Shown here: in pieces, positions 20,002-61,651 of the stretch
Layout: every line of letters starts with the position of its first letter
Numbering within the stretch: position 1 is the first letter of the stretch
Virus record (IMG/VR): IMGVR_UViG_3300013947_000034
Location: 1 to 64,000 of that record
DNA from: a virus
Lineage: Duplodnaviria > Caudoviricetes
DNA length: 64,000 nucleotides
Direction: 5' to 3' (one strand)
The notes under the pieces: generated by a model
Told to the model about the DNA's origin: nothing
The model's database searches: none
Seen by the model: the letters and a program-made list of their open reading frames with translations, nothing else
Program-made: the position numbers and the translations under genes

Positions 20002-20026
20002 CCTTGAAATATATTCTGTGAATAAT

Positions 20027-23000
20027 CTATCGACAAGACATCGAAATTGCAGCAGAGCTAACGAGAGAGGCAAATTTGGCACGTTCCGATATTGGAAGGG
20101 ATTCGATTGCTGAATTGAATGAATTGAAAGCTATTTCTTCACTAGTACTTTTATCTTCACCATATTCATCTTCATCATTAGCATCTTCGTCGCTAACATC
20201 AAAACGTTCATCAGCTTTTCCAGCAGCACCATCAAGTAAATCCTCAGTCGGTTCAACAGTTGTAGTATCTTCTATCCGCCCGGTAGAAGGTGTAGTTGTA
20301 TCTTGACTATCCTCATCTTCTTTTGTTTCTGTCTCAGCAGCTTTAACTTCAGTTTCTTGATTATTCTTAAATACTTCACCAAGAGCTTCCATTTGTTTAG
20401 CACGAAGACTATTAGGACGAATATTAACACCAAACAAGTCACCAATAAACTTGAGTATCTTTTGCCAAATAGTATTACCTTTAACTACTCCACCATCAGC
20501 ATCAACTTGATTAAGATAATTCATCAAATCAACATTTGTAAGAGACTCGACAATAAACTCTTCTAGAGCATCTTGAGGATTCTCACGAGTAGCATAACTT
20601 TCAGCAGTAAATTTATTTACATTATTAAGCCAAGCAGTAATTTGTTCAAGAGCAGCTTTATCTTGAATATGTCTTCTCTGTTTAATATTCTCAATATTAC
20701 CAGCTTGCAAATCAGCAATATCTTGAGCTATAGCATCAGCAAAGTCATCGTATATATCTTTCATACGAGAACGAAGATTAGCTACAGCATTAGGATGAGT
20801 TTTGTCGTTAGCCATATCTTCAATGTAAGCGTGAAGATTTTCATGCATTATAGTTCTAATAGCTCTACCTTTCTCACCAGGTTTTTTACTATTAATCATA
20901 TCTAAGAACTTTTGACCAACAACAACTTTATTACCTTTAGTGTTACTCCAAACAGCATTAGCTTGTTTATGATGTTTTTCCATAAACTCACTGTCAAAGA
21001 TAATATCTTTAGCTAAAAGTTTACGTAAAGGATTATCAGGTTTAATACTATTTAGTTTATCTTTAGAAGCACTATCGAGTAAAAGAGCACTAGCAACTTC
21101 AAAACCTTTATTCTCAGAATTAGACTGAATAATAGCTTTAACTTCATCAGCTTTAGACGTATAAGTAGTTTTATTATCCATACCTTTTACAGGGCGGCTT
21201 TCAGACTTACTAACTACTTCAAAACTAAATCTAGCATTAGCACCTTGTTTATTAGCTGCAACTCTTCTAATATTGCTACCATTTTCTTGAGCCATATTAA
21301 CTCTAAGAAGATTGTTTTGTTGAACAAAATCTTTAAAGCTATCATAAGTAAGATTTATACCATTCTTTCCTTTATATTCAGGAATGGTAATTTTAAACTT
21401 ACCGTCAGTAGTTCTACTAGTAATACCTTGAAGAGGAATGTTATGATTATTATCAGACTTTAGAACAGCAAAGTTAATATTGAAATTAAGACCTTCTATT
21501 CCTTTAATAAGTCTATCAGCTACAGCAGACAAATCGCCATTATAAGAAATATAAGTAGGTTTACCATCAACTTTACTAATAATTTGACCTACACCATCAC
21601 CATTTTTATCTCTATAGAAAAGAAGTTGATTATTCTTATTACCAAAGTTAACTCCAAGAATATTTGCAGTTCTAAATACAGATAGTCCTTTACTGAGGAA
21701 AATAGGATTCTTATTAATATTAAGAAGATTATCAATAAAATCAATAAAGTTATCTCTATTCTCAGTAAAATTCCCATCGTTAATAGAAGCAAGTCTATCT
21801 TTAATTTGAGTAACTATAGCACTTTGAAGTTGCTTAAAGTCTTTACCTGTCTCAACGTGTTGTTGTTTGCCATCTTTTGTATAGTATGTAGCACCTGCCC
21901 AACTTACAGGATAAGCATTGACAATATCTACAGTACCATTGCTACGAGGAACAGTAACATAAGTTCGACCAGCACTAACAAGAAATTTATTGCTTCCAAT
22001 ACCATTAATAAATTCTCCATTAATAGACTTAGCAGCAATTTCAAACTTAGTATCTTTAGCAATAGCTAATTGAATAGGTTGAGACGTTTCAGCATCACTT
22101 TTGAAAGTACCATCATTACTGCGAATAAGTTCACCTTCAAATACATCACTAGCTATAATATCAATATTTGGATTATTATCAAGTTTAGCAGTTTCATTAT
22201 AACTTTCGCGAAGATTATCAAACCATCTATCAATAGAATTAGCAACTACTGCACCAGTAAATTTATTAATATTACCTTCAGTAAGAACTTTATAATTATA
22301 TCTCCAAAGTTTGGCAAGTCCATTAAGAGCAACTTCATATTCAGGACCAGTTTTATCAGAGTTAATCATATTATTAGCAACCATGTCTTGAACAATAGGA
22401 TTACTCTTAAATTCGCTAACTAGTTGTTCAGCATTAAACTTATCAAAAGCAGCTTTATGAATAATTTCATTAAGTTTAGCATGCTCAGGAGTTTTACTTC
22501 TAGCTATATCTTTAAGAACTTGTTTAAGTGCTCCATCCTTAGAACCATCAGTTTTGTCTACATGATAAATAAGACCGTCATTCTTTTGGACATATTCGCC
22601 TCGTTCACCTTCAGAAGGAAGTGATATACTACCAATAAGTTTACCGTTAGATTTAATACCTAAACGATTAGTACCTTTAGCTGTAGTAACTCTTTCGATA
22701 GTAAGTTTATCTCCGTTTTTAAGTTTAACTTGTTCAGCATAATTCTCCTTTAAGTTTTCATCAGTATCAAAATCAGAAAGATTCATATTAACTCTATGAG
22801 TAGTTCCATTAGGAAGAGCAGCATCTCTTTCAGCTTGAGATTTATGGAAGTTATTCAAGAAAACAACAGGATTACTAACATCGTTTGCATCAGTAATATT
22901 AAACTTAGCTTGACCTTCAGGGGTATTAAGATAAGCAGACAAACTATTAAACATAAAGTCAGCCATAGAATAATCATCATAAGCAGACTTAATATAGTCC

Positions 23001-26000
23001 ATAAGGTTCATAAGATTACCATAATACTTACCATTAATTTGAGGAAGTTCAACATCTTTAGCATAAACATCAAGTAAATCACTAACAGCTTGTTTGTAAG
23101 AATCATCAAATACTACAGCCTTACCATCTTTTGTTTTAGCATTACGTTCTTCTTGGTCAAAACTACTGAAATAAACAGAAGCAACAGTACTTTCTTTATT
23201 CAATATTTTACTCATCTTTCTACGAACAAGTTTAAAAGCACTATCTATTACTTGTTTACTTTCAGTTTCACTATAACCTTTAGCAACATAATCATCAAGC
23301 ATAGCTTTAGCTTCAGTGTCCAAATTTAAATCAGGAGTAGTTTTAATTTTAGCAATAACTCCTTGAAGTATTTTCTTATCATCAGAATTACTATAGAAAT
23401 CAGGAACTTTAGCTTCTTCTTTAGGAGTAGTATCTTCTTCTAAATTGGGAGCAACTGGAACAGTAGGAGCAACTGGAACAGTAGGAGCAACTGTAGTAGT
23501 TGTACCTTCTTCTATCCCCCCGGTAGAAGGTATAGTTGTGTTTCCATTAGTTCCTTCTTCTTGATTTCCTTCAACTCCAAGTTTACCTTGACTAACAACT
23601 TCAAACTTACCGTCGTTATCAAGTCTAACTATTGGAAAACTTACAGGATTAACGTTTTGCTCAGTAGCAATATCAGCATTTGCGAATAAATCATCATTAG
23701 CATTAAGTTTAGGACTTAGAGGATGAACTTCATATTCATTATCGACATCGGTTGGAACAAGTTGATAATCATCATCAGTAGTCTCTTTACCAGTAGTCGT
23801 TGTAAACTTATAATTTGTAAAATCTAATTTTCCGATTTTACTCGGTTTTATCGCAGACTGCTGTGTACCAACATTCGATAATTGCGTATTTCCTTGCGCT
23901 GTGACGCTTTCAACTAACGACCCTGATAAATTATTCGTCTGACCAGTTTGAGGGGTTGAGAGCGAAGGATTTAGCGGTTCTACCGTTGGCGATGGTTCAG
24001 GAGAAGCAGGAGTTTCAGTATTAAGTTGTTCAGCTTCTTCTTCTTGAGCTTGAGCAGCAGCAGGTTTAGTCTCTTCAAATAAATCATCTTTAGCAAGCAT
24101 TTCTTGAATTTGTTCACCAAAACGATAATTGAGTTTACCGCTAAGATGAAGACAATCTAGAGCTTCTTTTAAATCTGCTTTATCTTTATCGTTAAGAATT
24201 GATACAAAGTTATCATAATTTTCAAAGTCTTGATTATAATAAGCACCGATTGCGTTAGTGATAGCATTACGATTATCTTTATTACGTTTAGCTATATCCT
24301 TAATAGTATCATAAGTTTGATTTATAACCTTAACTCTAGCATCATCAAGCGTTTGATTTAAGAAACTAAGTTCACTAGCTATATCTTCTCTATTCTTAAC
24401 TTGTTTACTTTTAAGGTAATCTCTATTAACTTCAGCAATAGCTTTATCTACAAGTAAATCAGTAAGATTTTTACCAACAACTCCAGGAATACCAAATTCA
24501 TCTGCATCAGTAAGAATTTGATTAGCTTTTCTACGATTTTCTTCAAATGCTTTATTTTGTTCAGCAATAGTTAGTTCATCAGAATATTTACTAAACTCAC
24601 CAACTATATTATGTTTAGTTGCATAATCATCAAGTCTTTTGAAATACTCGGCACGTTTAGCAATATCTTCATTTCCTTCAGCATCGTTTAAATTTAAAGA
24701 CATAATATCTTTAAGTTCTTTGCTAGCACCTTCGTTAGGTTTAAATTTAAGAACACCATTTTCGTCATGGAAAGCAGTAATTCCAGTACGAATAGCTTCA
24801 CGAAGGTAGTCAGGAGTAAGTTGAGCTTGAACAGCAGCTATATTTTTATTAATATTATCAAGAGCTACAGCACTACTAATATCAGTCTTAGCTTTTTCTT
24901 CAATTTCTCTACGTTGAGCATAAAGTTCAGCAAGATTATTAGCAAGAATTGTTTGAGCTGCAACTCTTTGTAAATCATCAATAGAAGTATCACCTAGTTT
25001 ATCAGCAATTTCTTTAACTTGAAGAGCAGCATTAATATTAGCTTGAGTTAAACCAAGTTTGTCTTCTTGACGAGCAATATCTTGACCATACTTTACATTG
25101 TTTGTAGCAATCATTTGAAGATACTCAATTGGAATAACTTGGTCATCCTTACGATGAGCAGCATAGTTATCAGCAATATTCATAACTCTAGTAAGTTCAT
25201 TATCGTATTGTTGAGTAACTTCATCCATTTTATTAAGTATCTCTTGTTGAGTTTGAGTAGCATCTTCTTTAGTAGTAATACCTTTATTTACTAAAGCATC
25301 ACGTACTTCATTAGATTTCATAAACTCACGAAGATAACCAGCGTTACCGTGATGAGCTGCATTAAGAGTTAAATCAGTAATAAGTTCATCTTGTGCTCTA
25401 GATGCAGCAACTTGTTGAGCTACAGTATTTCCTTTAATATCAGCGTTTTCACTAGGAGCAGCAAAAGGATTAACTCCTTCTTTTATCTTAGCAGCTCTAT
25501 CAAAGAATATATTAAAGTTATTCAACCAAGACTGCATATTATCTCTACGAGCTTTAACTTCACCAGTTTCACTAAGACCAAAAGAACTAGGAGTACTTTC
25601 TCCAGTTTGTTCGTCAGTTTTAGTTTTAGATTTTTCATCTATAGTAGCTTGAACTCTACCAAAAGCAGAACCTAAATGATGAAATACTACACCACCCATT
25701 ACTCCCCAAAAAGCAGAATCAGCAAGTCCTCCGCTACGAAGATACTTTTTCATTCTATCATCCCAAGGAGATTTATCTGCATCTGCTTCATCAAGAAGAA
25801 CATGACCAAGATTAGTACCTTCCATTTGAGCAATATAGTTTACACCTTCTTCAAGACCTTCACTAAGTTCTCCAGCTACAATAAGCTTTTCGTTTTTAAG
25901 TCTATCCCAAACTTTATTACGAGCTTTAGTCCAAGTAGAAACTTTATCAGCAGCAGCTTTAATTTCTTCTTCAGTTTTGCCTATAGCAAGTCTATTGTTA

Positions 26001-27121
26001 CGAAGAGTTTCATTAAGACTAGCACTACCGCTTCTATTTTTAAGACCTTTCCAAAAACCTCTAAGTCCATACATTTGAATAATATCAAACGTAAGATTAC
26101 CAAAGTTATATTTAAAGTCTTCATCAGCAGAAGCTTTAGAAATCTTTCTAGCAACAGCATCTTTATCAGAAGTATCAATATCTTGAAGTAGTTCTTGATT
26201 CTTATTTACAAATGCTTGATAATCTTGATTATTCATACTATTAAGCTTATCAGTAGCAGTTTTATAAACATCTTGATAAACTCCTTGCGCTTCTTGATAA
26301 TTTTCCATCATACGTTGAAGTACAGCATTACCTCCAACATTAGCAAAAGTATTAAGCTTACCTCCTTCTCTAGTGCTATTAATAATTCTAGCAGCAGCAG
26401 ATTGAAAACCAGTAAGATGAGTACCTTCTACCCCACGCTCAATATTATCAAGAGTTTTATTAATACCAAATAAACTTTTAAGACCGCTACGACTACGAGC
26501 ACCGAGTTTAAGAGCTTTACCTATAGTACCAACTCCTTTCATAATTCCACTAGCAGGAAGAAGTAAAGTTAAACTAGACATTACACTAGGGAAATTACTA
26601 GCCCACCAACCGAAATTTGTAAGACCTCCACTATAAATATCATTACGTGTAGGGTCACTATAAATTGGAGCTACTTCTTGGTCGAAATAATCTTGCCATT
26701 CTTTAATTGTATTACTAATAGGATTTTGGTAATCACCATCACTAGTAAAGAAACCATTAGCGACAGCATCAAACAAATCAGGAACAGCTTTAAGTGTACC
26801 AAGAATAGCTTGACTAACAAGAGCTTGACTTAAAGCATTACCAGCTTTAGTCCAATTAGACTGATTTTCAGCACGCTCTTTGTCAAGATTAGTAATTGGA
26901 TTAGGAGTAACACCATAGTGTTGATAACTATGAGTATCGCCCATAACCCAAGTACTACCTACGTTCTTAGCAAATTCATTAGCTGCACCTGAAGTATTAT
27001 CTTGATTTACATCTAAAGTATGAAAGAAGGGTTGTTGAGCACGACCCTTCTTTGTTTTAGGATTATAATTAGGATTACTAACTATAATTCCACTATTATT
27101 AAAAACACCTTCTGTATTCAT
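20027..27121 (-). CDS. large virion/ejection protein with a C-terminal zincin-like metalloprotease domain, 2364 aa
   Basis: HENLH (HExxH) plus downstream EEFIVESLT; hydrophobic Gly-rich N-terminal helices; adjacent to the RNAP gene, as known in crAss-like phages. Confidence 0.8.
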   Translation of the reverse strand: MNTEGVFNNSGIIVSNPNYNPKTKKGRAQQPFFHTLDVNQDNTSGAANEFAKNVGSTWVMGDTHSYQHYGVTPNPITNLDKERAENQSNWTKAGNALSQALVSQAILGTLKAVPDLFDAVANGFFTSDGDYQNPISNTIKEWQDYFDQEVAPIYSDPTRNDIYSGGLTNFGWWASNFPSVMSSLTLLLPASGIMKGVGTIGKALKLGARSRSGLKSLFGINKTLDNIERGVEGTHLTGFQSAAARIINSTREGGKLNTFANVGGNAVLQRMMENYQEAQGVYQDVYKTATDKLNSMNNQDYQAFVNKNQELLQDIDTSDKDAVARKISKASADEDFKYNFGNLTFDIIQMYGLRGFWKGLKNRSGSASLNETLRNNRLAIGKTEEEIKAAADKVSTWTKARNKVWDRLKNEKLIVAGELSEGLEEGVNYIAQMEGTNLGHVLLDEADADKSPWDDRMKKYLRSGGLADSAFWGVMGGVVFHHLGSAFGRVQATIDEKSKTKTDEQTGESTPSSFGLSETGEVKARRDNMQSWLNNFNIFFDRAAKIKEGVNPFAAPSENADIKGNTVAQQVAASRAQDELITDLTLNAAHHGNAGYLREFMKSNEVRDALVNKGITTKEDATQTQQEILNKMDEVTQQYDNELTRVMNIADNYAAHRKDDQVIPIEYLQMIATNNVKYGQDIARQEDKLGLTQANINAALQVKEIADKLGDTSIDDLQRVAAQTILANNLAELYAQRREIEEKAKTDISSAVALDNINKNIAAVQAQLTPDYLREAIRTGITAFHDENGVLKFKPNEGASKELKDIMSLNLNDAEGNEDIAKRAEYFKRLDDYATKHNIVGEFSKYSDELTIAEQNKAFEENRRKANQILTDADEFGIPGVVGKNLTDLLVDKAIAEVNRDYLKSKQVKNREDIASELSFLNQTLDDARVKVINQTYDTIKDIAKRNKDNRNAITNAIGAYYNQDFENYDNFVSILNDKDKADLKEALDCLHLSGKLNYRFGEQIQEMLAKDDLFEETKPAAAQAQEEEAEQLNTETPASPEPSPTVEPLNPSLSTPQTGQTNNLSGSLVESVTAQGNTQLSNVGTQQSAIKPSKIGKLDFTNYKFTTTTGKETTDDDYQLVPTDVDNEYEVHPLSPKLNANDDLFANADIATEQNVNPVSFPIVRLDNDGKFEVVSQGKLGVEGNQEEGTNGNTTIPSTGGIEEGTTTTVAPTVPVAPTVPVAPNLEEDTTPKEEAKVPDFYSNSDDKKILQGVIAKIKTTPDLNLDTEAKAMLDDYVAKGYSETESKQVIDSAFKLVRRKMSKILNKESTVASVYFSSFDQEERNAKTKDGKAVVFDDSYKQAVSDLLDVYAKDVELPQINGKYYGNLMNLMDYIKSAYDDYSMADFMFNSLSAYLNTPEGQAKFNITDANDVSNPVVFLNNFHKSQAERDAALPNGTTHRVNMNLSDFDTDENLKENYAEQVKLKNGDKLTIERVTTAKGTNRLGIKSNGKLIGSISLPSEGERGEYVQKNDGLIYHVDKTDGSKDGALKQVLKDIARSKTPEHAKLNEIIHKAAFDKFNAEQLVSEFKSNPIVQDMVANNMINSDKTGPEYEVALNGLAKLWRYNYKVLTEGNINKFTGAVVANSIDRWFDNLRESYNETAKLDNNPNIDIIASDVFEGELIRSNDGTFKSDAETSQPIQLAIAKDTKFEIAAKSINGEFINGIGSNKFLVSAGRTYVTVPRSNGTVDIVNAYPVSWAGATYYTKDGKQQHVETGKDFKQLQSAIVTQIKDRLASINDGNFTENRDNFIDFIDNLLNINKNPIFLSKGLSVFRTANILGVNFGNKNNQLLFYRDKNGDGVGQIISKVDGKPTYISYNGDLSAVADRLIKGIEGLNFNINFAVLKSDNNHNIPLQGITSRTTDGKFKITIPEYKGKNGINLTYDSFKDFVQQNNLLRVNMAQENGSNIRRVAANKQGANARFSFEVVSKSESRPVKGMDNKTTYTSKADEVKAIIQSNSENKGFEVASALLLDSASKDKLNSIKPDNPLRKLLAKDIIFDSEFMEKHHKQANAVWSNTKGNKVVVGQKFLDMINSKKPGEKGRAIRTIMHENLHAYIEDMANDKTHPNAVANLRSRMKDIYDDFADAIAQDIADLQAGNIENIKQRRHIQDKAALEQITAWLNNVNKFTAESYATRENPQDALEEFIVESLTNVDLMNYLNQVDADGGVVKGNTIWQKILKFIGDLFGVNIRPNSLRAKQMEALGEVFKNNQETEVKAAETETKEDEDSQDTTTPSTGRIEDTTTVEPTEDLLDGAAGKADERFDVSDEDANDEDEYGEDKSTSEEIAFNSFNSAIESLPISERAKFASLVSSAAISMSCR
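23448..23493. repeat. 18-bp tandem repeat (2.5 copies) encoding VAPTVP
   Basis: GGAGCAACTGGAACAGTA x2 plus GGAGCAACTG. Confidence 0.95.
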
Positions 27122-27123
27122 AA

Positions 27124-30387: not shown

Positions 30388-33300
30388 TTAATTAATACCA
30401 TACTTTCTACGTTCCTTATCGGTAAGCATACTTAAATAGAAATTCTTAGTACGTTCATCAGTAGAAGCATTATACAAACCTGCAATCATTTGAGGAGAAA
30501 GATTATAGCCCATTTCGAGAAGTCTTGTAGGACTAGCTTCTTTACTAGAAGCAATCATAGCACGTCTACTTTGGTCATCTTCATAAGCAGTTCTACCAGC
30601 AGTCCAGAAATTAGTCCAAGCTTGAGACAAACCGCTAAGACCGACATTAAGAGCTTGAGCTTTAGATTGAACAGCATCGTTTTTAATCTTAGCAATTTCG
30701 CTTTGACGAGCAAGTTCATTCTGAGCATTCTGAATAGCAACAGCTTGTTGATTCTTAGCGTCCTCAGTAAGCATCTTATTTTCTTCATTTTCCTTAGTAG
30801 CATAAAGTTTACTAAGTTGCTCAAGAGCTGTAAGATTAACATCATTTGCTCTATTAAGAGCGGCTACAGAACTAGAAGTATTATTATAAACTTGACTACT
30901 AAGTCTGTCTCTTTGACGTTTTATTTCTTCTACTTGAGGAGCAATATTATAATTAGTAGGAAGTTTACTAGCACTAATAATAGGTGCTCTATCAGGAAGA
31001 TAATATTTACCAGCAGCATTATAATTAATAAGACCAGTACTCAAAGCAGCAAGACTATCAATTCCTAGACCTACATAATCTCCACCAGTAAAAATAGTAT
31101 GGGATTTACTACGAGGTAAACCACGATAAGGAACTTCAACATCTTCTGTAGGAGGAGTATAAGGGAGGTTAGGCACACTTACTTTATTAAAATTAGGAAT
31201 CGTAGTAGCGTTTGTATTAATAGTAACAAAAGAGGGAGTTCTCCATTTTGCAGTAGCAACTACTGGATTAAGTTCTCCACCTATTTGGTCATATTCTTCT
31301 TTACCATATAAAGCTTTATGTCTCATACCTTTTACAGGGCGGCTAGAAATTAAACTTCCACCAAGTTTATATTTAGCAACACCTCCATATCTAAAAGGGG
31401 CATCCATATAATCAAATATATCTATTTTATTATGGATGTCAAAATTTCTAATTTTATCTTTTCCTTGCAATCGTCTACTTTTATCTAAAAGATAATTTCT
31501 ACGAAGAGTTCTATTAATTGTTCTATAATTTACATCTTTCATAAACTTAGTTTCTTTATTAAAATCGTATGCTTTACGAGGTTTCATAAATATTCTAGCT
31601 TCTCTAATAAAATCATCAAAACGATTATATTCTCTAGGTATGAAATAATTTTCATCACCTTTTTGAAAATCAACACCATCAGTATTCCAACGACCTGATT
31701 TATTGGTTTGGTTTAGATATTCTTCTAGATTTTGTAATGTAATCTTATCTTCTTTTGCAGAACTAGGCAAATAAGCACGTTCTGTTACATTAAGTATATC
31801 ACCGTTGCTTCTACCATAATTATCTTCTATTGCTATAGCTCCTTTCTTTCTAGCATCTTCGATAGATTCTTTATAATGTTTAGTACCAGCAAAAACATTA
31901 TTATGTCCTCCTCTAACAACTTTCATTCTTGCAGCTCTTAATTGGTCAGCAATAGGTTTACTTTTATCAATATCGAAATCATAGAACAATTTACCTATAT
32001 AACCGTTGCTTATTCCGTCATTTGGATTTTTAAAAGCGTTAGCTATTCCTCTACTATTAGAAGTATATAAACCACCATTAGTATTCAATCTATCTCCTCC
32101 TCCACGATACGATTTAATTGTAGTAAGATAATTTTTAGCAGTTTCTTTATCGTTAGCATATACTCCACGAAGACTTGTTTGTTGACGCTTTAAAAATTCG
32201 TCCACAGTACGCTGTTCATTCCAAGGATATTTAACTTTAGGATAATTGACTTCTTCAAGAAACTTATAATATTCAGGATTATGATTCATTAAATCATAAT
32301 AAGCATCTTGCTCAACTTTATTTGCAAAACCAGTAGAACCCCAACTATAACCATAATAAGTAGTTGGATTTCCAACAGGTTTTCCATTATGTGTAGGTTG
32401 AATCACTTGACCGTGATATTTAGGAGCTTTCTTATTAAAACTATATTTAAAAAAATCTCGTTCCCTTCTATCAGGCGTAATGTAAGTATAAAATAAATCA
32501 GGATTTTTATTAACAGCTTTATTACGAACTTCAATAGGATATTCATACCAATTATTTTCAAAAGGTCTATTACCCAATGCGACATCTAAATTTTTGTCAT
32601 AATTTTGTTGAATAGTTCTATAATCTCCTCTATCTAAAAGACCTGCTTTTTTATAAAGCTTATTAAGCTTATATCCATATTTTCCGTAATTCATAGGATT
32701 ACGAAGAATGTTAGCAATTTTATTTCCTACAATACCTAATCCTATATCACCAATAGCGTTAACTCCTAAACTCAAATAAGGATGTTCTTTAGCATATTCA
32801 GTATTAAGAAAACCACCAGTATCATTCATCATATAATGACGAAGAAAATCATTAGTGTTTTTACTATCACGAATAGAACCATATATGTTACTAGGTGTAA
32901 AATTAAGAATAGGAGCAGCAGCCGCTGTAGTAAAATTTACAGCACCCATTGGGTCATAATAAGAACTAGTATCTTTTTTACCTGCTTCTTTCCAATGATT
33001 AGCTTTACCAGTAATAACTACATCTTCACCGTTTGTTGCAGAAGTAGTATAATTTTTACCATCTAAAGTATCAGTAAATGTACCATCATTATTAATGTGA
33101 ATACGAGAATAAGGAATAGCAGTTCCTTGTCTAGCTTTACTTCCATCATCTTTAAGTCCATTTCTTTTCTTAAAATCTTGCTGTTCAGCAAACACTTTAT
33201 CTTTATTGTAACCACGAAGAATAGCTTGAGCAGGAGACATTCCATTACCAAGAATAGGTTGAGCACTAAAAATTCTTAGAGCACCATTCTTTTTCTGAGC

Positions 33301-33981
33301 AACTTCACCACCTTCAGCTTCAACTTCATTACCACCAACATTAATACCTATACCAGTTTGACCAGTCTCGTTAATATCTTCATGAGAGCCGCCCTGTAAA
33401 AGGTATGTATTGTTGTCTACCTTAGTAGCATCACCACCATCAGTAATATAAATACCTTTAGCACCAAGAGTTTTACCAAGTCTAGCAGCAGTTCTAAATT
33501 GTCTAAGATAATCTTCTTGATAATCAGAACTATTATTAAGCGCTTGTGTCATAGCGTTAGCTTCTTGAGTAGTGTCTTGCCAATCTTGCATGCTCTTTTG
33601 AAGACGCATTTGTTTCTTCTTTGCAGAATTACCAAAAATAGAACTAGCAATAGAAGTTGCAGCTCCAATAGCAGCACCAATCCAACATTTCTTACGACCA
33701 CCAAGTTTCATCTTAGTAGGGTCATTAGGAATAGTTATTCTATTAAACCCACTAGGAGTACTAGGAAGTGGATTGGGGGCATCAAGATTTTTAATACCCT
33801 CAACATCAACTTTAGGTTGATTATTGTTAGTATTATTAACCTGATGCTTACTGACAGCACTATCTACAATAGAACCAGCAGCCGAAGCTACTGGTGCTAT
33901 ATAAGAAGTAAAGAAACTACCGAAGTCAGCTTTAGGTCTACCACCACAACGAAGACTTCTTCTTTTAGTTTTTACAGTCAT
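30388..33981 (-). CDS. virion cargo protein with a central foreign insert, 1197 aa
   Basis: N-terminal hydrophobic WIGAAIGAATSIASSIFG, GGSHE and VEAEGGE segments, coiled-coil C-terminus; the central ~600 aa differ in composition. Confidence 0.7.
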   Translation of the reverse strand: MTVKTKRRSLRCGGRPKADFGSFFTSYIAPVASAAGSIVDSAVSKHQVNNTNNNQPKVDVEGIKNLDAPNPLPSTPSGFNRITIPNDPTKMKLGGRKKCWIGAAIGAATSIASSIFGNSAKKKQMRLQKSMQDWQDTTQEANAMTQALNNSSDYQEDYLRQFRTAARLGKTLGAKGIYITDGGDATKVDNNTYLLQGGSHEDINETGQTGIGINVGGNEVEAEGGEVAQKKNGALRIFSAQPILGNGMSPAQAILRGYNKDKVFAEQQDFKKRNGLKDDGSKARQGTAIPYSRIHINNDGTFTDTLDGKNYTTSATNGEDVVITGKANHWKEAGKKDTSSYYDPMGAVNFTTAAAAPILNFTPSNIYGSIRDSKNTNDFLRHYMMNDTGGFLNTEYAKEHPYLSLGVNAIGDIGLGIVGNKIANILRNPMNYGKYGYKLNKLYKKAGLLDRGDYRTIQQNYDKNLDVALGNRPFENNWYEYPIEVRNKAVNKNPDLFYTYITPDRRERDFFKYSFNKKAPKYHGQVIQPTHNGKPVGNPTTYYGYSWGSTGFANKVEQDAYYDLMNHNPEYYKFLEEVNYPKVKYPWNEQRTVDEFLKRQQTSLRGVYANDKETAKNYLTTIKSYRGGGDRLNTNGGLYTSNSRGIANAFKNPNDGISNGYIGKLFYDFDIDKSKPIADQLRAARMKVVRGGHNNVFAGTKHYKESIEDARKKGAIAIEDNYGRSNGDILNVTERAYLPSSAKEDKITLQNLEEYLNQTNKSGRWNTDGVDFQKGDENYFIPREYNRFDDFIREARIFMKPRKAYDFNKETKFMKDVNYRTINRTLRRNYLLDKSRRLQGKDKIRNFDIHNKIDIFDYMDAPFRYGGVAKYKLGGSLISSRPVKGMRHKALYGKEEYDQIGGELNPVVATAKWRTPSFVTINTNATTIPNFNKVSVPNLPYTPPTEDVEVPYRGLPRSKSHTIFTGGDYVGLGIDSLAALSTGLINYNAAGKYYLPDRAPIISASKLPTNYNIAPQVEEIKRQRDRLSSQVYNNTSSSVAALNRANDVNLTALEQLSKLYATKENEENKMLTEDAKNQQAVAIQNAQNELARQSEIAKIKNDAVQSKAQALNVGLSGLSQAWTNFWTAGRTAYEDDQSRRAMIASSKEASPTRLLEMGYNLSPQMIAGLYNASTDERTKNFYLSMLTDKERRKYGIN

Positions 33982-33984: not shown

Positions 33985-36900
33985 TTAATACTTTGAATAA
34001 TTAATATTTATATCTTCAAATCTAAAAGGAATATTATCAACATTATTAAATAAGAAACGAGTAACGAAATAACGACCATAAACAAGATTACGTTGGTCAC
34101 TTGCATCACTCAACATCATATCAACTTTAACTTTCTCTTTAGCATTAAGGTCTTTATAATGCTTTCCATAACGTTGAGCTATTTCTTCTCCTTGAAGTTC
34201 TTTACTAATATAATTACGAATATAATTAAAATTCCAAATTCCTTTATCAAAGTAAGGATGTTTATAATCTGCAACACCTTCTTTATTAACTTTGTCATTA
34301 TTAATTATATTATTGATTGCAATATCTAAATCTCCAGTATCATTAGAATCAGTATATATACGAAGAATGTCACCACTATAATGTGTAATATCACCATACG
34401 TTCCATTCCCCATAACTGGCTCAGCCATTCTAGTAATTTTATCACTGGCATAAGCATATACTTTATTAAGGATATAACTGATAGAATTAAGACATTTAGG
34501 AACACTATAATATTCATTGAATAAAACATCAAATATAGCAGGCATTATAGTCTTAGTTACTTCACTATTATCTTCCTGCTTAATAGTAACATTTGTAGCA
34601 TAAGTAGGAAAACCATAAGTAGTATGCCAAAGAGTAAGATAATCTCCAAGTCTAGCGTCTTTGTGAAAACAATATAGATAACTAGATTTACCATCTTCTG
34701 TAGCATAATAAAAATATGGTTTATTCTTAGTATTAGCAGATTTACTAAACTTGTAATCATGAAGACTAACATAATGTTTAGTAGTCATATCAAAACTAAG
34801 AGTAATATAATCTTTAGCAACATCTTTATTATGGTATTTAATGCAAACTATAACTCTGTTATTAACAAAGTCAGTAGTCATATGAGCATCATCAATAATA
34901 ACGTTGTTAAGCCAACCTAATATATCATTACTTAAATCATTGAGTTTATTGTTATCAAAATTATATATTCTAGCATTATCTGCATCAACAAACCAATAAC
35001 CGTTTGCGTTAACCGTCCAAGCTTCAGGATTTTGAAGTCCACCATAACCATGATTACTAGTAAACAACTCTATCGGTTCTACCTCAAACAAATCGGGCAT
35101 TTTTAATTGCGCTGTAACGTCCGATGTCTTGAGGAGGTTATCTCTATTAAGGTAAAACAAAGAATGCTCCGTGTGGACAAAAAAAGCGTTGCCTACGCCA
35201 ACGATATTGGATATGTTGCCCTTCGCCTTAGACAGTACTTTATAGTTGTTCGACTGAAAATGTCGCCAAGCATTAGCAAGACTTTCATCACCTATAACAT
35301 CGCTACGACGAATAGTTGTACGCTTATAACTATCATAGTTTAAATTATCCTTATAATTAGTATAAACTTTATAGGTACTTTCTATATAAGTATCCTTGAG
35401 TTCAATAAGGTCTGTAGCATTGAGTGGTTGAACAATAAAATTCACACTACGTTGATGACTACCTTCTCCGCTTTCATTATCACCAAGAACACCAACTAAA
35501 TAACTAGGTTCTTTCTTAATAGAAACAGCATTAGTATTAATCCTACTAAACTTAGAATAATTAAGCAATCTAGCATATTCAGCAGTTTGTGAAGTCCATT
35601 CCTTAGCAATAGAATTTTCATCATTGATTTCATATACTTTACCAGTATCTGATATATAAACTTTTCTATCATAAATTAAAGCTTTATCGTTAACATAGAA
35701 GGCAGGATAATTAAAATCATAACCATGAACGTAATTGTTAGGGAAATTACTAGCATCGTCACTATCAGCATAACTGTAAGTTTCAACATCATCATGTTTG
35801 TAACAAATAGGACCAAAAGAAACAAGTTGTTTATCTTTCTTACAATATATGTTACGATTGAAAACTATAACATTGCCGACTTCACCAATAGTAGGAATTA
35901 CTTTACCTTTGCTATCTTTAAGACTAAGAACTATGCCACCATCAGAACCAGCAGTATTAATAGCATTCGTTGCCTTATCTGAGTTGATGCTATTAGAAGT
36001 AACAATACCAGCATCATTAATATAAGCTGGATTAGTTGATGGAAGCTCATAACCACTACTTGTAATTTTGTATTCAGGAACATATATAGAACCGTTATAA
36101 TTAACATTACCAGTCTCAACTTCGCTAGCTTTAAATAAACCTACATTATTATTAGTCTTAGCACAATAAGCTTGATAATTATTAGTTACTTCAGGTTTCT
36201 CATAACTGAAGAAGAAACCAACATAACCATCAGGTATTTGAATGTTAGTAAAACCAATTTTAATAGCATACAAAGCACTATCAGATTTATTAAAAGCATG
36301 AGCAGCACCAGTCTTAAATAACTTATCGTTATTATAGTTCTTATAATAACCAAATTGAGTTGATTTAGCATCATTACTTGAACTAGGAGAAATAGCACTA
36401 CTTACAACTTCATAAACAAATTTATCTTTAAGAGTATCAATACTAAGTATATTAGTAAAATCTCTATCATTGCCTGAAGTAGCTCCACTAAGACGTTCAG
36501 CAAGAGCAGTAACGTTTGATATTTGAGTGTCAACAGTATTAGCACCAGTCATAGTAACTGAGTTCATAATACTTGTTGGAAGAATATCGTTTGTGAGTTG
36601 ATAACCGTTAGTGTAAGTACCATCTCTACGAACATAATGAATAAAGAAGTTATATACACTATTAGGCATTAAAGTCCTAACTGCATCTTCAATATTAACT
36701 GTAGCTGAATAAGTTCTAGTATTACTAGCTTTAGTCATTTGAAAACGATTAGGTCTAAAGTATGCAGCAGGCATCCAATCTCCATATATTATTTTACCGA
36801 CATTATCACCACTAAGTTTGTAAGCTCTATTTTTATTACTGCCTCCATTACCAGTACCTAAAGCCGCATAAAATCTATGAGATTTACCATTAACTGGAAT

Positions 36901-40716: not shown

Positions 40717-40773
40717 AGCCGCCCGGTAAAAGGTATAACAATGTACACATACAATACCTTTTACAGGGCGGCT
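40717..40773. repeat. inverted pair of the 20-bp motif, 17-bp spacer
   Basis: AGCCGCCCGGTAAAAGGTAT (40717-36) and ATACCTTTTACAGGGCGGCT (40754-73). Confidence 0.95.
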
Positions 40774-49638: not shown

Positions 49639-49930
49639 ATAATTATTATTTGAAAAATAAAAGGAGCAGGACTTCTAGGACTTAATACATTAGCAACTTA
49701 AACACCAATTTAATTAATATTCTTGTTAACTGTTTGCCTGCTCCTTATTCGTTTATTACTTAGTTCTTTTTGATTGAAATATCAACACAGATACACATTC
49801 TTTGCGTTCTGAGACGTTTTAATACCTAGTCATGATAAGTTATTCACGAGATACCCAAAAGTCGCTTACATCGAAAATTTGATACTAAAATAAAATCTTA
49901 AATTTAGTATTAGTCGTTGTATTATACGTT

Positions 49931-51618: not shown

Positions 51619-51674
51619 AGCCGCCCGATAAAAGGCATGGAATTGTATACAACTATACCTTCTACAGGGCGGCT
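51619..51674. repeat. inverted pair of the 20-bp motif, 16-bp spacer containing the palindrome TTGTATACAA
   Basis: AGCCGCCCGATAAAAGGCAT (51619-38) and ATACCTTCTACAGGGCGGCT (51655-74). Confidence 0.95.
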
Positions 51675-53718: not shown

Positions 53719-53761
53719 AATTAATATAATGATTAGCAAGTATTTATTTACTAGTTATGTA

Positions 53762-54100
53762 CTAAATACACATGGGTTCAACATTTTTATTCTTTAGAGT
53801 TGCTTCAGCAGTAGCGAGACGATAAACTCTTGAAGTATTTAGCCATTTATATGCTAAATCTCTAAGATGTCTTACTGTATGAACAGTTCTATTAAGAATG
53901 CTTGCAATAGTGGTTACACTAAATCCAGCATGAAGCATTTGTTCAACTATCATAGCTCTAGTCATAACTACATTTTCAGCACGACTTTTACCAAGTACAT
54001 CTTTTCTAGTAATATTAAATGTACCATCAGGAAGAGTAGTTCCACAACATTGAATTACATTATCGATTACTCTCCACAATTCTTTCTCTTTATCGTTCAT
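53762..54100 (-). CDS. DnaA C-terminal-domain-like HTH DNA-binding protein
   Basis: ITRKDVLGKSRAENVVMTRAMIV...SVTTIASILNRTVHTVRH mirrors the Bac_DnaA_C signature. Confidence 0.7.
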   Translation of the reverse strand: MNDKEKELWRVIDNVIQCCGTTLPDGTFNITRKDVLGKSRAENVVMTRAMIVEQMLHAGFSVTTIASILNRTVHTVRHLRDLAYKWLNTSRVYRLATAEATLKNKNVEPMCI

Positions 54101-54127
54101 AATTAGAAAAGTTAAATGATTATTAAA

Positions 54128-54657: not shown

Positions 54658-54669
54658 AAGAACATCTTA

Positions 54670-55293: not shown

Positions 55294-55299
55294 AGCTAA

Positions 55300-55351
55300 A
55301 CAATAAAGACGGAAAGCCGCCCTGTAAAAGGTGAGACGAGCAGCATTCCGT
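55300..55351 (-). terminator. intrinsic terminator whose 3' arm includes a 20-bp motif copy
   Basis: On the - strand: GACGGAA-T-GCTGCTC...GGGCGGC-T-TTCCGTC followed by TTTATTGTTT. Confidence 0.7.
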
Positions 55352-55375
55352 CTATCAACTAAAACCTATTGAATA

Positions 55376-56287: not shown

Positions 56288-56315
56288 TATTAATTATTTT
56301 ATAAGTTATACAATA

Positions 56316-57221
56316 TTATTGGGCACTAGGTTGATAACCCTCATCTCTAGCATTGTTACGAACGTTTTCACGTTGTTGTTGCTGTTGAGCACCTTGAGCA
56401 GCAGCAAGACCACCATTAAGAGCAGTACGATACAAATCAACTGCGTGCTTAACAATATCAACGTGCATACTCTCAGGAAGTTCACAATCAACATCTTCAC
56501 CACCAATATCTTCATTGAAATGAACAGTACCAGGCTTACCAATATAAGATAAACGAATTTCGTTTACACTAAGACCATCACCAAACTTATAAGTATCAGG
56601 AGTACTCTTAGTGGCAGCATCCGGTTTATCAATATAAAGTTCAATATTGTTATCATGAATTGTAGCAACAGGACTACGAAGATTTGGAGCCATTACAAAA
56701 TCATTAACAACATCGGCAAGATATTGGTCATCAACAAGACGAATAGGGAAGATATTAGTTGTAAAACTACCACCACCAACAGCTTTAGTATAATCAATAC
56801 TCAAATCTACAAGGAAGAAGTATTCAATACTTGCAGGTTTACCATCACCAGTTGCATCAGCAGCATAAATAGCATCACCTTTCTTAATAGTACTATCATT
56901 AGCTTCACTAGCTAAACGGAAGTTTGTAAGAGGAAGAATGTAACTAGCAATATAATTAGTCTTTGGAGTAGGAAGAGTAACTTTACCCTTCCATACTCTA
57001 TAAAGACTTTTAAGAGCATTGACTTGATTGAGCTTAGAGTTATCAGTAATTACTCTATCACTAGTAGTACCAATGTTTTGAGCAATCACTTGATTAACAG
57101 TGTCCGAAATGGAGTTGTTCAGGAGTAAGTCTATCTGCGATGGCAAGATAGCTCTCACATTTTGCATACCCATTTGTTGAGCATAATTTCTGAACATTTG
57201 ATGCATTTCAGCAGTAGTCAT
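56316..57221 (-). CDS. conserved crAss structural (neck/ring) protein
   Basis: MTTAEMHQMF...MGMQNVRAILPSQIDLLLN N-terminus and CELPESMHVDIVKHAV C-terminus; synteny with the MCP. Confidence 0.65.
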   Translation of the reverse strand: MTTAEMHQMFRNYAQQMGMQNVRAILPSQIDLLLNNSISDTVNQVIAQNIGTTSDRVITDNSKLNQVNALKSLYRVWKGKVTLPTPKTNYIASYILPLTNFRLASEANDSTIKKGDAIYAADATGDGKPASIEYFFLVDLSIDYTKAVGGGSFTTNIFPIRLVDDQYLADVVNDFVMAPNLRSPVATIHDNNIELYIDKPDAATKSTPDTYKFGDGLSVNEIRLSYIGKPGTVHFNEDIGGEDVDCELPESMHVDIVKHAVDLYRTALNGGLAAAQGAQQQQQRENVRNNARDEGYQPSAQ

Positions 57222-57232
57222 ATCTCTATCTA

Positions 57233-58372: not shown

Positions 58373-58392
58373 AGCTTTATAAGTTTAATGAA

Positions 58393-59871
58393 TTACAATA
58401 CACACTTCAACTGGAAGAACTTAGTAGCCTTGTCTACTTGCAAACCGAATGAATTCTTAACCTCATAACGAGAGCAGTCAATATCAGTAGCAAGAGAATT
58501 AGTAGGAACAGCACCCCAAGAAGCAGGAATAGGAGTAAGACCTTTAATCACACCATTAATATAAACTTGACCCTTCTTACGAACCTTACGAATGTTGTTA
58601 TGACCATTATAAGAAGAAGCGTCGAGCATAAATGCTTGATGAGAAGTCATAGGATAACCAGTACGAGGATGTACATCACCATTAGCCTTAGCGTTCTCAG
58701 CAAAAGTACCACGGTCGAGGAATGAAAGATGTTTCAAAGTAATCATATGACCATCAACAGTCTTATACTGACGGAAGTAGTTACCATAAGAAAGACCGCT
58801 AGCAGAAGTTTGAATCATCTTATCACCAAGAGGAGTAACAAAACCCTCACTCTTAGCCTCATTCTTAATAGCACGGTCAAAGTCCTCTACGAAACCTTTA
58901 CCACAAGCAAGAACAACATCCATATTACCAGTGTCTGTATCCTTATCAAGAACATCACCAACAGTACGAACAAGCTTATTGATTGTAAGCTCTTCACCAT
59001 AAGTGTCGTAATTAGATTCACGACAAATCTGTTGCATACCTGCTGTATGAGGAATTGGCTGACCATTATCTTCATCAACAAGAGTAATCTCACCATTGAT
59101 GGTCTTATTATACTCAGCAAACCACAAACGCTCCTCATTCATTACACGTTGCTGTAACTCAAACTGGCGCATCTCCTCATTAATCCAAAGATTAGTAGTA
59201 CCGCCACCAGTAGTCTTAAACTCATAAGTTACAATAGTGTTTGCAATGTTACCTGCAATCTCCTTACTAAAACGATGGAACTCAAGTTGAGAAGTCATCT
59301 TACCAGGTCCCATAGTATTAGTACGATTACCCTTAGAATAACTCTCTGGAATAGTAGGAGCAGTCAAAGACCAACTTTTACCTACAGTCAAGTTCTTAGC
59401 TACATCGACAAAAGCTTGTGGGTTAGGATTTGTAATACGAAGACGATACAAGTAACCACCATGAGCACCAGCACCAAGGTCTTTCATAATACGAACTTGA
59501 GTTACACCATCAGGAGCAATCAAACCATACTGCTCAATAAACCAATGAGTACGGAACTCAACTTCAAAAGTAGCACCACCCTTACCAGGAGTTGTATTAG
59601 CGTTGTTAAACCAAAGTACAGTATCGTTGAACTTCATACGACCCATAGTCTTCCAAGTCCAATCAGTAGTATCAATATCAACTGTACCAGCAGTACCTTG
59701 ACCTTCAGTCAAGAAATTAAGTGGGAATCTATCATCATCCATACCAAAAGTATAGGTGAGCATAGAATTAATCTCACTAGGTTTAGATAACATAAGATGA
59801 GCAATGGTTTCTTCATTAGAATAACCACGGTCTTCATAGTTACCACGTTGTACTTCACGAATTGCGTACAT
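58393..59871 (-). CDS. major capsid protein
   Basis: 492 aa with strongly optimised codons; motifs DDRFPLNFLTEG, YIDTTDWTWK-like segment, MTSQLEFHRFS and GMQQI; position after the portal and scaffold-like genes. Confidence 0.88.
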   Translation of the reverse strand: MYAIREVQRGNYEDRGYSNEETIAHLMLSKPSEINSMLTYTFGMDDDRFPLNFLTEGQGTAGTVDIDTTDWTWKTMGRMKFNDTVLWFNNANTTPGKGGATFEVEFRTHWFIEQYGLIAPDGVTQVRIMKDLGAGAHGGYLYRLRITNPNPQAFVDVAKNLTVGKSWSLTAPTIPESYSKGNRTNTMGPGKMTSQLEFHRFSKEIAGNIANTIVTYEFKTTGGGTTNLWINEEMRQFELQQRVMNEERLWFAEYNKTINGEITLVDEDNGQPIPHTAGMQQICRESNYDTYGEELTINKLVRTVGDVLDKDTDTGNMDVVLACGKGFVEDFDRAIKNEAKSEGFVTPLGDKMIQTSASGLSYGNYFRQYKTVDGHMITLKHLSFLDRGTFAENAKANGDVHPRTGYPMTSHQAFMLDASSYNGHNNIRKVRKKGQVYINGVIKGLTPIPASWGAVPTNSLATDIDCSRYEVKNSFGLQVDKATKFFQLKCVL

Positions 59872-59902
59872 ACTTAAACGAATTAATTAATTAAACAATA
59901 AC

Positions 59903-61267
59903 TTAACTAAACTGAATATCATCAGTTGCATTTTTATTATCTTTAGCTGGTTTAGTAATTCGTACAGTACCACGACCTTTATTTTGTTTAGCTGTTAATC
60001 TGAGAGTTTTAACTTCATGTTCTCTAACAGCCATCTTTACTAGGTCTTCATAAGAACCACCTGTGTACATTAACCAAGCTTGTAGAATTTCATTATTAAG
60101 AGCATCTTCAGGAGTTTGTTTAGCAAGAGCACGTTCATAACCAGTAGCTACATTACCTTGCTCGTCTTTAATACCTCTTGAAAGATAATCATAAAAATCG
60201 TTAGGAGTAACAGTAACCTTTTGTCCATTAACCTCACGAACAAGAGATTCAGGAAGTTGATAATTACCAACCTTACGACCTTCAACGACAGTTTTTACAT
60301 TATTCCAATAAGCAATAGTATCTTGTTCTTGTTGCTTACGTTGAGCTTCAGCTTGTTTAGCAGTCTCTTCATCACGTTTTTTATCAGCAGCTTGAAGATT
60401 AGCTAACTGAGTTTTAGCTTCATCATAAAGACCACCAGAATCTTTAAGATACTTAATGTAATTATCATTGAGAGAAGCATTACCAAACTCTCTAGCAGCA
60501 GCTTTGATGATTGCAATCTGTTGCTCTTCGGACTTTTCATCAACAGTCAAACCACTACGGTCAGGACGTTCACCAAATCCACGAGGGTCACCATTGTTAA
60601 CAGTAAGATAATCAACAAACTGTTTGAGGATTGGATTATCAACAAATACTTTGTTTACAGCAGCTTGAGCAACTTCATTAGACTTGAGTTCAATAGCAGA
60701 ATTAATATAACTCTTAATACCATCTATATCATCAGTAAATTCAACTGGCTTACCTTCTTCATCAGTAATGTCAATATCAAGAGCTTTACGAATATTTTCA
60801 AGATTAACATCAGCACCAGGTTCGTCTACCTGAAGAGAATCAATCCAACCCTTAACGTCTTTAGCTTCTTTAAAAACTTTACCATCCTTATCTACAAGGT
60901 CGCCATTATCAGCAACAGTATAAGTTTGACCTTCAAACTCAACTCGCATACCTTTCTCTAGCTCCCCGGTAGAAGGTGTAGTATCGTTTCCATTATCATC
61001 TTTACCGTCAGCATCTTTAGTATCAGCAGAATGCTCATCACCAGATTTATCATCTTTGTCATCTTTACTGTCGGAAGCGTTACCGTCACCATCTGCGCCT
61101 GTACCGTCACCGTCTTTTCCTTCTCCATCACCTTTGCCGTCTTTACCAGTAATATCGGTAGTATCAGTACCACTGTTACCACCAGTTCCAGTAAAATCAA
61201 TATCGAGTACTGGAGCACAAAGACGAGCATGAGGTTTAAAACCTAGAGTATTACGAAATACAAACAT
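59903..61267 (-). CDS. acidic scaffold-like protein upstream of the MCP
   Basis: D/G/K-rich disordered N-terminus and helical C-terminus; -7 box TACATTTG at 61321-61328 on the - strand. Confidence 0.7.
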   Translation of the reverse strand: MFVFRNTLGFKPHARLCAPVLDIDFTGTGGNSGTDTTDITGKDGKGDGEGKDGDGTGADGDGNASDSKDDKDDKSGDEHSADTKDADGKDDNGNDTTPSTGELEKGMRVEFEGQTYTVADNGDLVDKDGKVFKEAKDVKGWIDSLQVDEPGADVNLENIRKALDIDITDEEGKPVEFTDDIDGIKSYINSAIELKSNEVAQAAVNKVFVDNPILKQFVDYLTVNNGDPRGFGERPDRSGLTVDEKSEEQQIAIIKAAAREFGNASLNDNYIKYLKDSGGLYDEAKTQLANLQAADKKRDEETAKQAEAQRKQQEQDTIAYWNNVKTVVEGRKVGNYQLPESLVREVNGQKVTVTPNDFYDYLSRGIKDEQGNVATGYERALAKQTPEDALNNEILQAWLMYTGGSYEDLVKMAVREHEVKTLRLTAKQNKGRGTVRITKPAKDNKNATDDIQFS

Positions 61268-61651
61268 ACTTTAATTGATTAAATGATTAATAAATAAACT
61301 AACTGTTTTATTAGTTGCTGCAAATGTATTACTATTAATTTAATTACCATTGTTAGCACTCTTTGTTTATAGTTTATTAATAGCATAAGCAAAAGTATTA
61401 TTAATATAATGTATAAGTCTACTAATGTAAACATTTGTAGCACTAGTTATAGCACTAAGTCAATTAGTAGCATTATGTATCAAACCGATGCTCATAGGTG
61501 CTTTCGCTGACAACTCTGTGTCGGGAACATTCGATTTTTGCTACAATCCTTTTACAGGGCGGCTTTAAAATGCTTTCGTGAATAACTTATCACCAACTAA
61601 TCGAAAGTGCCACAGAGAAGAATTTAAAATATTAAATTTGCTATCAATATA

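Follow-up and report, generated by a model that had tools for sequence, protein, structure and literature searches.

A dyad-centred element recurring at operon heads of a gut crAss-like phage: a putative operator set in host-type promoters

Why should almost the same run of some 55 nucleotides recur in one phage genome, on both strands, at the end of a gene, in the spacers between genes and even within a gene? The genome is that of IMG/VR record IMGVR_UViG_3300013947_000034, whose lineage is placed in the Crassvirales, Intestiviridae, Obtuvirinae, i.e., among the gut crAss-like phages, and the stretch analysed, termed here the window, is the first 64 kb (positions 1 to 64,000) of its 85,018 bp. 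The crAss-like phages are the most abundant human gut viruses. Their early genes are transcribed by a virion RNA polymerase (RNAP) and their middle and late genes by that of the host; control of this transcription is known in outline, and we know of no regulator or operator that has been defined for them. The original prediction, made from the letters of the window, described a degenerate family overprinted on genes and intergenic DNA, and suggested a cis-acting site or a miniature repeat strong enough to distort coding sequence. The dispersed element is partly confirmed and its interpretation partly supported. A multi-copy family of cis-acting sites finds support, and its anatomy suggests a putative operator for a dimeric regulator, set within host-type promoters of middle and late operons, a reading in which we place about as much belief as doubt.

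Read in its own sense, the element has a four-part layout: box A (TCTRAGMSR), about 14 nt, a 16-bp near-palindrome (GTGAwwAAsTTwwTCAC), exactly 8 nt, and TTTGAG. Among the copies box A takes the forms TCTGAGACG, TCTAAGCGG and CTGTGGCAC. The TTTG and the four bases before it resemble the Bacteroidetes −7 box, TAnnTTTG, and come as TATATTTG, an exact version in the portal spacer of clade A relatives, as TATATTTC at 20.0 kb, as TTAATTTG at 77.2 kb and as TGTGTTTG or CATGTTTG at fibre-type sites. At the opposite edge of the palindrome, 20–21 nt upstream of this −7-like box, is xTTG. As the two flank the palindrome, it occupies the spacer of what is, in form, a host-sigma-type promoter. The core followed after exactly 8 nt by TTT[GCA] is present at the 77-, 20-, 61- and 23.9-kb copies of this genome and at three sites each in its nearest named relative, cr8_1, and in two further relatives, G003 and G004. 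With the last position restricted to G or C, the pattern has 3 matches in the genome where 0.11 are expected and 1–3 per genome in five relatives, and a backwards control has 0. Boxes with 5–6 of 6 matches to the −7 element stand at the common offset at 77 and 20 kb, at 53.8 kb (an exact TATATTTG) and 46 kb of cr8_1, and at 17.4 kb of G003; all are on the sense strand, 36–70 nt ahead of a start codon at three types of site. The TTTG box at 77.2 kb precedes by 36 nt a TTG start that cr8_1 keeps, and the fibre-type copy of cr8_1 is 45 nt upstream of the ATG of a 1063-aa gene.

Four sites in the 85 kb carry the exact core, GATARRTTATTCAC: 20018-20031, 49834-49847 and 61578-61591 in the window and 77221-77234 outside it. 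The 15-mer of the core is one of just three 15-mer families with at least three occurrences in the genome. Intergenic DNA amounts to about 8% of the genome, and all four cores are in it or at its edge. The parts of the copies in the window, with two features that belong to the spacer at 61.6 kb, are these.

61578..61593, minus strand: core GTGATAAGTTATTCAC, a 16-bp near-palindrome with the exact core, in the spacer between the portal and gp092-like genes
61602..61617, minus strand: box A of the 61.6-kb copy, CTCTGTGGCACTTTCG, which aligns with its counterparts in the other copies
61566..61573, minus strand: weak −7-like box GCATTTTA, 4 nt past the core, with a copy of another dispersed motif, the first element (GCCGCCCTGTAAAAGG, 61548-61563), next to it
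61620..61637, minus strand: AT block ATTTAATATTTTAAATTC, between the portal terminator (61690-61661) and box A
20018..20033, minus strand: core TCGATAGATTATTCAC, overlapping the stop of the 2364-aa gene, 83 nt before the ATG of the 4611-aa gene
20006..20013, minus strand: −7-like box TATATTTC, 4 nt past the core, with a hairpin (19972-20001) and T run next
20042..20057, minus strand: box A of the 20-kb copy, CTCTGCTGCAATTTCG, within the final codons of the 2364-aa gene
49832..49847, minus strand: core GTGAATAACTTATCAT (TGATAAGTTATTCAC on the plus strand), in the spacer ahead of the 2203-aa gene
49857-49870: box A of the 49.8-kb copy, TGTAAGCGACTTTT, aligned with the other copies
23898..23955, plus strand, antisense within the 2364-aa gene: in-gene copy, with box A GCTGTGACGCTTTCAA, core CTGATAAATTATTCGT (23923-23938), 8 nt and TTTGAGGGG
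5265..5280, minus strand: core of a weak member, CTGAATAGTTATTCAG, with box A TCTGAGACAATTT at 5291-5303, about 45 nt before the ATG of an open reading frame (ORF) at 4950-5219 (minus strand)

In the sense direction the order at 61.6 kb is portal stop, terminator, AT block, box A, core, weak −7-like box, first-element copy, about 250 nt, a canonical and conserved TACATTTG, a short conserved hairpin, and ATG. At the offset of the weak −7-like box of this copy clade A has the exact TATATTTG. The setting is a genome with a minus-strand gene block from about 72.6 kb down to 6.1 kb (terminase, portal, major capsid protein, fibre-like, 2364-aa and 4611-aa genes, the last of which carries a DFDID motif and is the giant RNAP-homologue gene) and with plus-strand genes running from about 73 kb, across the record ends, to 5.2 kb, small ORFs being followed by the replication module.

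How many of the proposed copies are real? The pair from which the family was first drawn is borne out: 20002-20057, which encodes the end of the 2364-aa gene with its TAG stop (20029-20027) within the core, and 61562-61617 align ungapped at 38/56, and no further 56-nt window of the genome attains 34/56 against either, the best matches in 30 Markov shuffles being 29–34. It also holds that the 17-mer at 49833-49849 is the exact reverse complement of 61576-61592. The bare 14-mer, once two mismatches are allowed, is at chance level (8 found, 4.0 expected, with 5 of 100 shuffles reaching 8), and because of this the family has to be defined by its longer architecture and not by a degenerate core. 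A 62-nt position weight matrix (PWM) was built from 16 seeds, the 23.9-kb copy not among them, with 40 shuffles as the null. By it, and by a gapped hidden Markov model (HMM), five copies stand clear of the shuffled background, as a profile test of the original prediction would have it. The PWM gives them 60.0, 46.2, 39.9, 27.1 and 26.8 bits (27–60 for the four intergenic copies, 22.7/26.8 for the non-seed copy at 23.9 kb); the best score elsewhere in the genome is 1.4, and shuffles reach at most 11.0. A profile built without the sequence of this genome still gives 50.7 bits at 77221, 20.1 at 23925, 18.1 at 61591 and, for the 20.0-kb copy that scored 39.9 as a seed, 11.6 at 20031. nhmmer ranks the copies in the same order, with 16.3 bits (E 7.5e-4) for the 23.9-kb copy against 9.6 for the best of 20 shuffles. 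The member at 5265-5303 is weak (8.7 bits, E 0.18 by nhmmer) and by itself inside the null; it has positional orthologues at cr8_1 2534, G004 6500 and G001 437, which score 9–15 bits.

Within genes the family is sparser than was proposed. The copy at 23.9 kb (23894-23956) is, by PWM and nhmmer against shuffles, a genuine member, and the remaining three that had been proposed in genes, at 35105-35150, 35215-35265 and 57105-57170, are background: they are absent from the ungapped PWM list, the gapped HMM has no match at either 35-kb site even at E 1000, and near 57.1 kb it finds just an 11-nt match of −2.0 bits (57193-57203). The CGATGTCTTG that the 35-kb sites share with the 20.0-kb copy had been offered as a sign of kinship; it carries no weight because, by our own estimate, about 24 shared ten-mers are expected by chance between a 56-nt copy and both strands of the genome. 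A patch of otherwise rare CG-containing codons was said to accompany each in-gene copy. By CpG count per 80 nt there is one at 23.9 kb (98.7th percentile) and at the two 35-kb sites (95.8th), and none at 57.1 kb (67th); the 77.2-kb copy contains zero CpG.

Does the real in-gene copy distort the coding sequence it lies in? It sits, in frame and stop-free, in a linker of the 2364-aa protein that is rich in Ser, Thr, Pro and Gln, and has orthologues at G001 80563 and G002 80050 and, weaker, at cr8_1 20554. Synonymous and nucleotide conservation there is ordinary, at the 57th–77th percentile among close relatives and the 34th–66th among distant ones; synonymous identity is at the 63rd–77th percentile against clade B, which includes G001 and G002, and about the 34th–49th against clade A, and nucleotide identity at the 57th–68th. 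The proposal of a site that bends coding sequence to its needs thus finds no extra synonymous constraint in this comparison of percentiles with relatives. Conservation being ordinary, the copy is a true relative of the family without demonstrable constraint on the coding sequence. The core decays in clade A, and the copy may be either an old one that drifts or an internal site particular to the lineage. An antisense promoter at this point is possible. A false lead is set aside: the element is not a mobile repeat (see below) and exerts no measurable coding constraint.

Copies were aligned with orthologues in cr8_1 (an uncultured phage, likewise Crassvirales, Intestiviridae, Obtuvirinae, about 74% identical in nucleotides in the spacer tested) and in four complete relatives fetched whole, G001–G004. 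Viral and metagenome contigs were scanned from protein seeds, and the closest relatives reached at most 79–86% identity in the query protein; contigs of a strain about 99.5% identical to this phage were found in four runs, and no RNA run was listed for it. Relatives, cr8_1 and many metagenomic ones among them, have copies at orthologous spots, namely in the portal/gp092 spacer, ahead of a large fibre-like gene, at the replication-module head and in a spacer near tRNA-Gln (here at 5860-5931, the only hit of Rfam and tRNA scans). The portal/gp092 copy is present in cr8_1, recognisable in 11 of 27 viral contigs, and seen also in about 40 metagenomic loci, with a diverged form, CTGATTAACTTATAAG, in the other clade. 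The copy at 49.8 kb has orthologues at G001 55145 and G002 52588, and many metagenomic loci have the site on the sense strand. Among 38 unique clade-B portal spacers the 14-mer core has a variability of 0.0056 where the spacer averages 0.057, which ranks it among the lowest 4.5% of windows; the clade-B equivalent of box A, TTCTGAGAC, is invariant (lowest 3.5%), and the AT block ATTTAATATTTTAAATTC, with variability 0.000 (lowest 0.2%), is the most invariant block of the spacer and is kept in all three clades. At the portal site of cr8_1 and clade A the core is GTGAATAACTTATCAC, the exact reverse complement of the 16-mer of this genome, while the flanks keep their orientation, and the asymmetric core is also flipped among sites within this genome. 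From these flips it follows that orientation is immaterial, which fits a symmetric binder and fits a directional signal poorly. Three sites here share one identical 15-mer, and in relatives the three are each different, which suggests concerted evolution, the sites keeping pace with a single binding specificity.

With more distance the trail fades. In the more distant Intestiviridae (cr271_1, ctcc615, cr3_1 and Carjivirus communis) profile scores are not significant, at most 4.7 bits. The same spacer in those phages has the core-like words GGATAACTTATAAG and GTGATAGATTGATCAT, and in the portal/gp75 spacer of Carjivirus communis, the prototypical crAssphage (L237:1010-1050), TTTCGTGATAGATTGATCAT resembles core and left flank, at 4.7 bits, which is not significant. 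The exact 15-mer, sought among viral contigs, gave single chance matches in unrelated contigs and no close relative of the lineage. No description of the motif was found in literature searches; the element is new as a motif and belongs to a known class, that of phage promoter and operator motifs.

Could the copies have been spread as a miniature mobile repeat, of the repetitive extragenic palindromic (REP) or miniature inverted-repeat transposable element (MITE) kind, able to land in genes? They are dispersed, dyad-symmetric and in both orientations, three of them have the identical 15-mer, and one lies in frame and stop-free in the low-complexity linker described above. However, their positions are orthologous in lineages whose 2364-aa proteins are only 37% identical, no alignment has an element-sized gap, and neither presence/absence polymorphism nor target duplication was seen. 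Genomes have few copies, a steady 3–7 each; within relatives the cores differ among sites in a way not expected of recent transposition; and each of the unrelated viral contigs listed has the exact 15-mer a single time, without bursts. Mobility, which the original prediction had raised, is not supported, and we give it scarcely any credence. A different thought is that the copies are conserved boundaries, i.e., recombination joints between exchangeable modules (fibre genes or the RNAP block, for example). Copies do precede large, variable fibre-like genes that differ in position and size between lineages, and the genome is a mosaic in which the 2364-aa gene and the gp092-like protein show different affinities: the former (20027-27121) has 88% nucleotide identity to clade B (G001/G002) and 56% to clade A, in contrast to the latter (59903-61267), which is about 68% identical to relatives from both. 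Yet joints would leave the fixed 8-nt spacing, the dyad symmetry and the copy at the head of the conserved replication module unexplained, and conservation of boundaries could itself be a by-product of promoters at module heads. We regard joints as very improbable.

The palindrome invites the question of whether it acts as folded nucleic acid, an RNA hairpin or DNA cruciform that serves as terminator, processing or stability signal, or origin-like structure. The 77.2-kb copy gives the best case: a hairpin of 23 pairs, −28.6 kcal/mol, z −7.0, followed by UUUAU and kept in six genomes, where 7 of 11 changed cells still pair through G-U, which is workable in RNA alone. The portal copy of cr8_1 folds moderately (z −3.5), and several copies have an outer dyad, CTCAA ... 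TTGAG. Against this, the copies at 61.6, 20.0, 49.8, 23.9 and 5.27 kb and the 46-kb copy of cr8_1 fold like shuffles (z −1.5 to +1.1), an RNAalifold comparison of 12 orthologous portal spacers shows no conserved pairing around the core, and the 77.2-kb stem itself has zero two-sided compensatory changes, its right arm being invariant and its left arm variable. Separate ordinary terminators, moreover, already adjoin the 61.6-kb and 20.0-kb copies. As the other copies fold like shuffles, the hairpin is a property of one site and not of the family; it is sequence, not structure, that defines the family, and a structural role for the element as such is unlikely. In the 250-nt gap after the 61.6-kb copy RNAalifold likewise found no conserved non-coding RNA structure, just the short hairpin beside the gene start. 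At 61296-61328 (minus strand) the canonical −7 box TACATTTG is followed directly by a 6-bp hairpin, in which 6 of 12 relatives preserve the pairing by exchanging CG for GC; the hairpin probably forms a 5′ stem in the mRNA of the capsid operon. There is also a long hairpin, GGAGCAGG…CCTGCTCC, with a T run (49655-49760, minus strand), directly before the ATG of the 2203-aa gene and about 150 nt downstream of the 49.8-kb copy, which could mark the end of a short transcript or be an attenuator.

If it is sequence that counts, whose protein reads it? The consensus of the DnaA box is TTATNCACA, and TTATTCAC(A), present in all four copies here, matches it at 8–9 of 9 positions, so the core might be a DnaA-box-like or other host-factor site, for replication control for example, and not a transcription operator. 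A protein encoded at 53762-54100 has a sub-threshold match to the DnaA C-terminal helix-turn-helix (HTH), E 9e-4. However, the cores of relatives deviate at key DnaA positions (TTTATCGG, TAATCAC, TATAAG) and the sites nonetheless persist; the sites are single and scattered, with no clustering of boxes of the kind that an origin has; and the HTH protein is absent from cr8_1, its model being unreliable (mean predicted local distance difference test, pLDDT, 55). A DnaA-like role is thus quite unlikely. The same protein (minus strand) was also considered as the phage’s own binder and rejected, being missing from cr8_1, which retains the sites. It is of 112 aa and all-helical, with sub-threshold matches to HTH_23 as well as to the DnaA domain (under the cut-off in both cases), is 56–60% identical in G001–G004, and has no solved relative and a poor AlphaFold model.

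What is found, then, is what an operator would lead one to expect: a dyad that keeps a constant distance to a promoter element, recurs at the heads of several operons and is better conserved than the DNA around it. A dimeric, sequence-specific DNA-binding protein, encoded by phage or host, would bind the palindrome and, once bound, switch the promoters, either as a repressor or as a MerR-like factor seated in the promoter spacer; alternatively, it may be an activator that substitutes for a weak −33 element in the manner of T4 MotA. Four units would have their heads co-ordinated in this way: at 77.2 kb the replication module, at 61.6 kb the capsid operon, at 49.8 kb the large fibre-like gene and at 20.0 kb the giant RNAP-homologue gene. 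The promoter activity, the binding and the direction of control are here predicted from sequence.

Several points weigh against this operator reading. Neither strand of the 49.8-kb copy bears a −7-like box, and at 61.6 kb the box is poor (3 of 6). A canonical, conserved TACATTTG stands about 55 nt ahead of the ATG of the gp092-like gene and the 61.6-kb copy is 311 nt upstream, and since the former is nearer the ATG, the latter is dispensable as the promoter of that gene. A transcript begun at the −7-like box at 20.0 kb would stop, because of the hairpin and T run downstream. The TTTGAG can alternatively be taken as the outer arm of the larger dyad, CTCAA ... TTGAG. The pattern was partly defined post hoc, with data already seen. 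Besides the rejection of the 53762-54100 protein as binder, Pfam and PHROGs searches of the small ORFs upstream of the replication module (73.6–78.3 kb) found no recognisable DNA-binding domain. Apart from these points, a scan with the sigma-70 consensus gave no excess of promoter-like sites. The consensus sequences of sigma-54, lambda boxA/nut, CRP/FNR/Rex, Fur and IHF, compared by eye, do not fit the spacing, and none of them is claimed.

Other dispersed motifs share the neighbourhood. The first element, (tcta)GCCGCCCTGTAAAAGG(tatg), has 10 exact copies and about 24 with at most 4 mismatches, on both strands, in genes and between them, with some inverted doublets. It is found at 66.7–82.1 kb of the genome and in the window at these places.

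3165-3249: first element
6084-6099: first element
17201-17216: first element
21183-21198: first element
31328-31343: first element
33388-33403: first element
40718-40772: first element
51620-51673: first element
55316-55331: first element
61548-61563: first element

The copy directly after the 61.6-kb site has identical spacing in cr8_1 and clade A, the first element is in the same spacer of cr3_1 (Crudevirinae), and assembly contigs of other samples break at first-element copies. A core-like palindrome, CGATTAATTAATCG, adjoins the first-element copy at 82.1 kb. A third motif, TAAAATATTAAATAA, is at 77266-77280 and 82153-82167 on the plus strand of the genome and at 71342 on the minus, and in the window at 61620-61637 and 5221-5232 (minus strand). 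It stands 3–18 nt ahead of start codons, in cr8_1 included, and nothing in the portal/gp092 spacer varies less across 38 relatives; at 77.2 kb and, on the opposite strand, at 61.6 kb it is exactly 18 nt past the box in the TTTGAG position. Lastly, a 47-nt family (…TCTATCCGCCCGGTAGAAGGTGTAG…), with copies 79–83% identical at 20263-20309, 23503-23549 and 60949-60995, is an in-gene variant of the first element; each of its copies is 250–630 nt from a copy of the present element, for which a rough estimate of chance is about 0.03.

What would follow? An operator-like site provides a DNA probe for its binder, a motif for annotating operon starts in the Obtuvirinae and a small set of targets for mutation. 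A bolder idea, which we rate a long shot, is that one regulator would gate the replication, capsid, fibre and giant virion RNAP units together as a global on/off switch. If true, such a switch could let non-lysogenic crAss-like phages sit quietly in Bacteroides, which would bear on their unexplained long-term persistence, and the 23.9-kb copy would be an internal or antisense control point in the gene for a virion protein.

How does the element compare with known systems? Like REP, REPIN and MITE sequences it is short, dyad-symmetric, dispersed and in both orientations, but its copies are positionally orthologous across deep lineages and very few, most have no stable hairpin, and there is no RAYT or transposase nearby. 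A second comparison is with the middle and late promoters of phi14:2 and ‘candidate genus VI’, a tripartite motif (Drobysheva et al., bioRxiv 10.1101/2020.03.07.982082). Both sets are intergenic, conserved, endowed with a host-type −7 element and placed upstream of the RNAP-homologue, the gp092 homologue and other middle or late genes. Those of phi14:2 (NC_021806; g070, g075, g108, g110) consist of an A tract, (C/T)TTG, about 20 unconserved nt and TAnnTTTG, i.e., they are of the plain Bacteroidetes type, without palindromic spacer or box A. The present element, in contrast, has a conserved palindrome in the spacer, no A tract, TTTGAG in place of TTTGCA or TTTGTA, and 3–6 of 6 matches to the −7 element. 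About a dozen canonical TAnnTTTGCA promoters are in other spacers of the present genome, and because of these, and of the palindromic spacer and box A, the element is a class apart from the promoters of phi14:2. Among operators, its sequence is unrelated to those of MerR, LexA or Fur, and the protein that would bind it is putative; CRP/FNR/Rex-type sites have N6 where this one has GTGA-N8-TCAC. The MotA box, which replaces the −35 element in T4 middle promoters, is non-palindromic in contrast to the near-palindromic core here. In organization, however, the element is like MerR-family sites, LexA and Fur boxes and T4 MotA middle promoters in being a site of fixed length at a fixed distance from a promoter element, and it shares with these systems recurrence at several operon heads and the dyad symmetry expected of a dimer.

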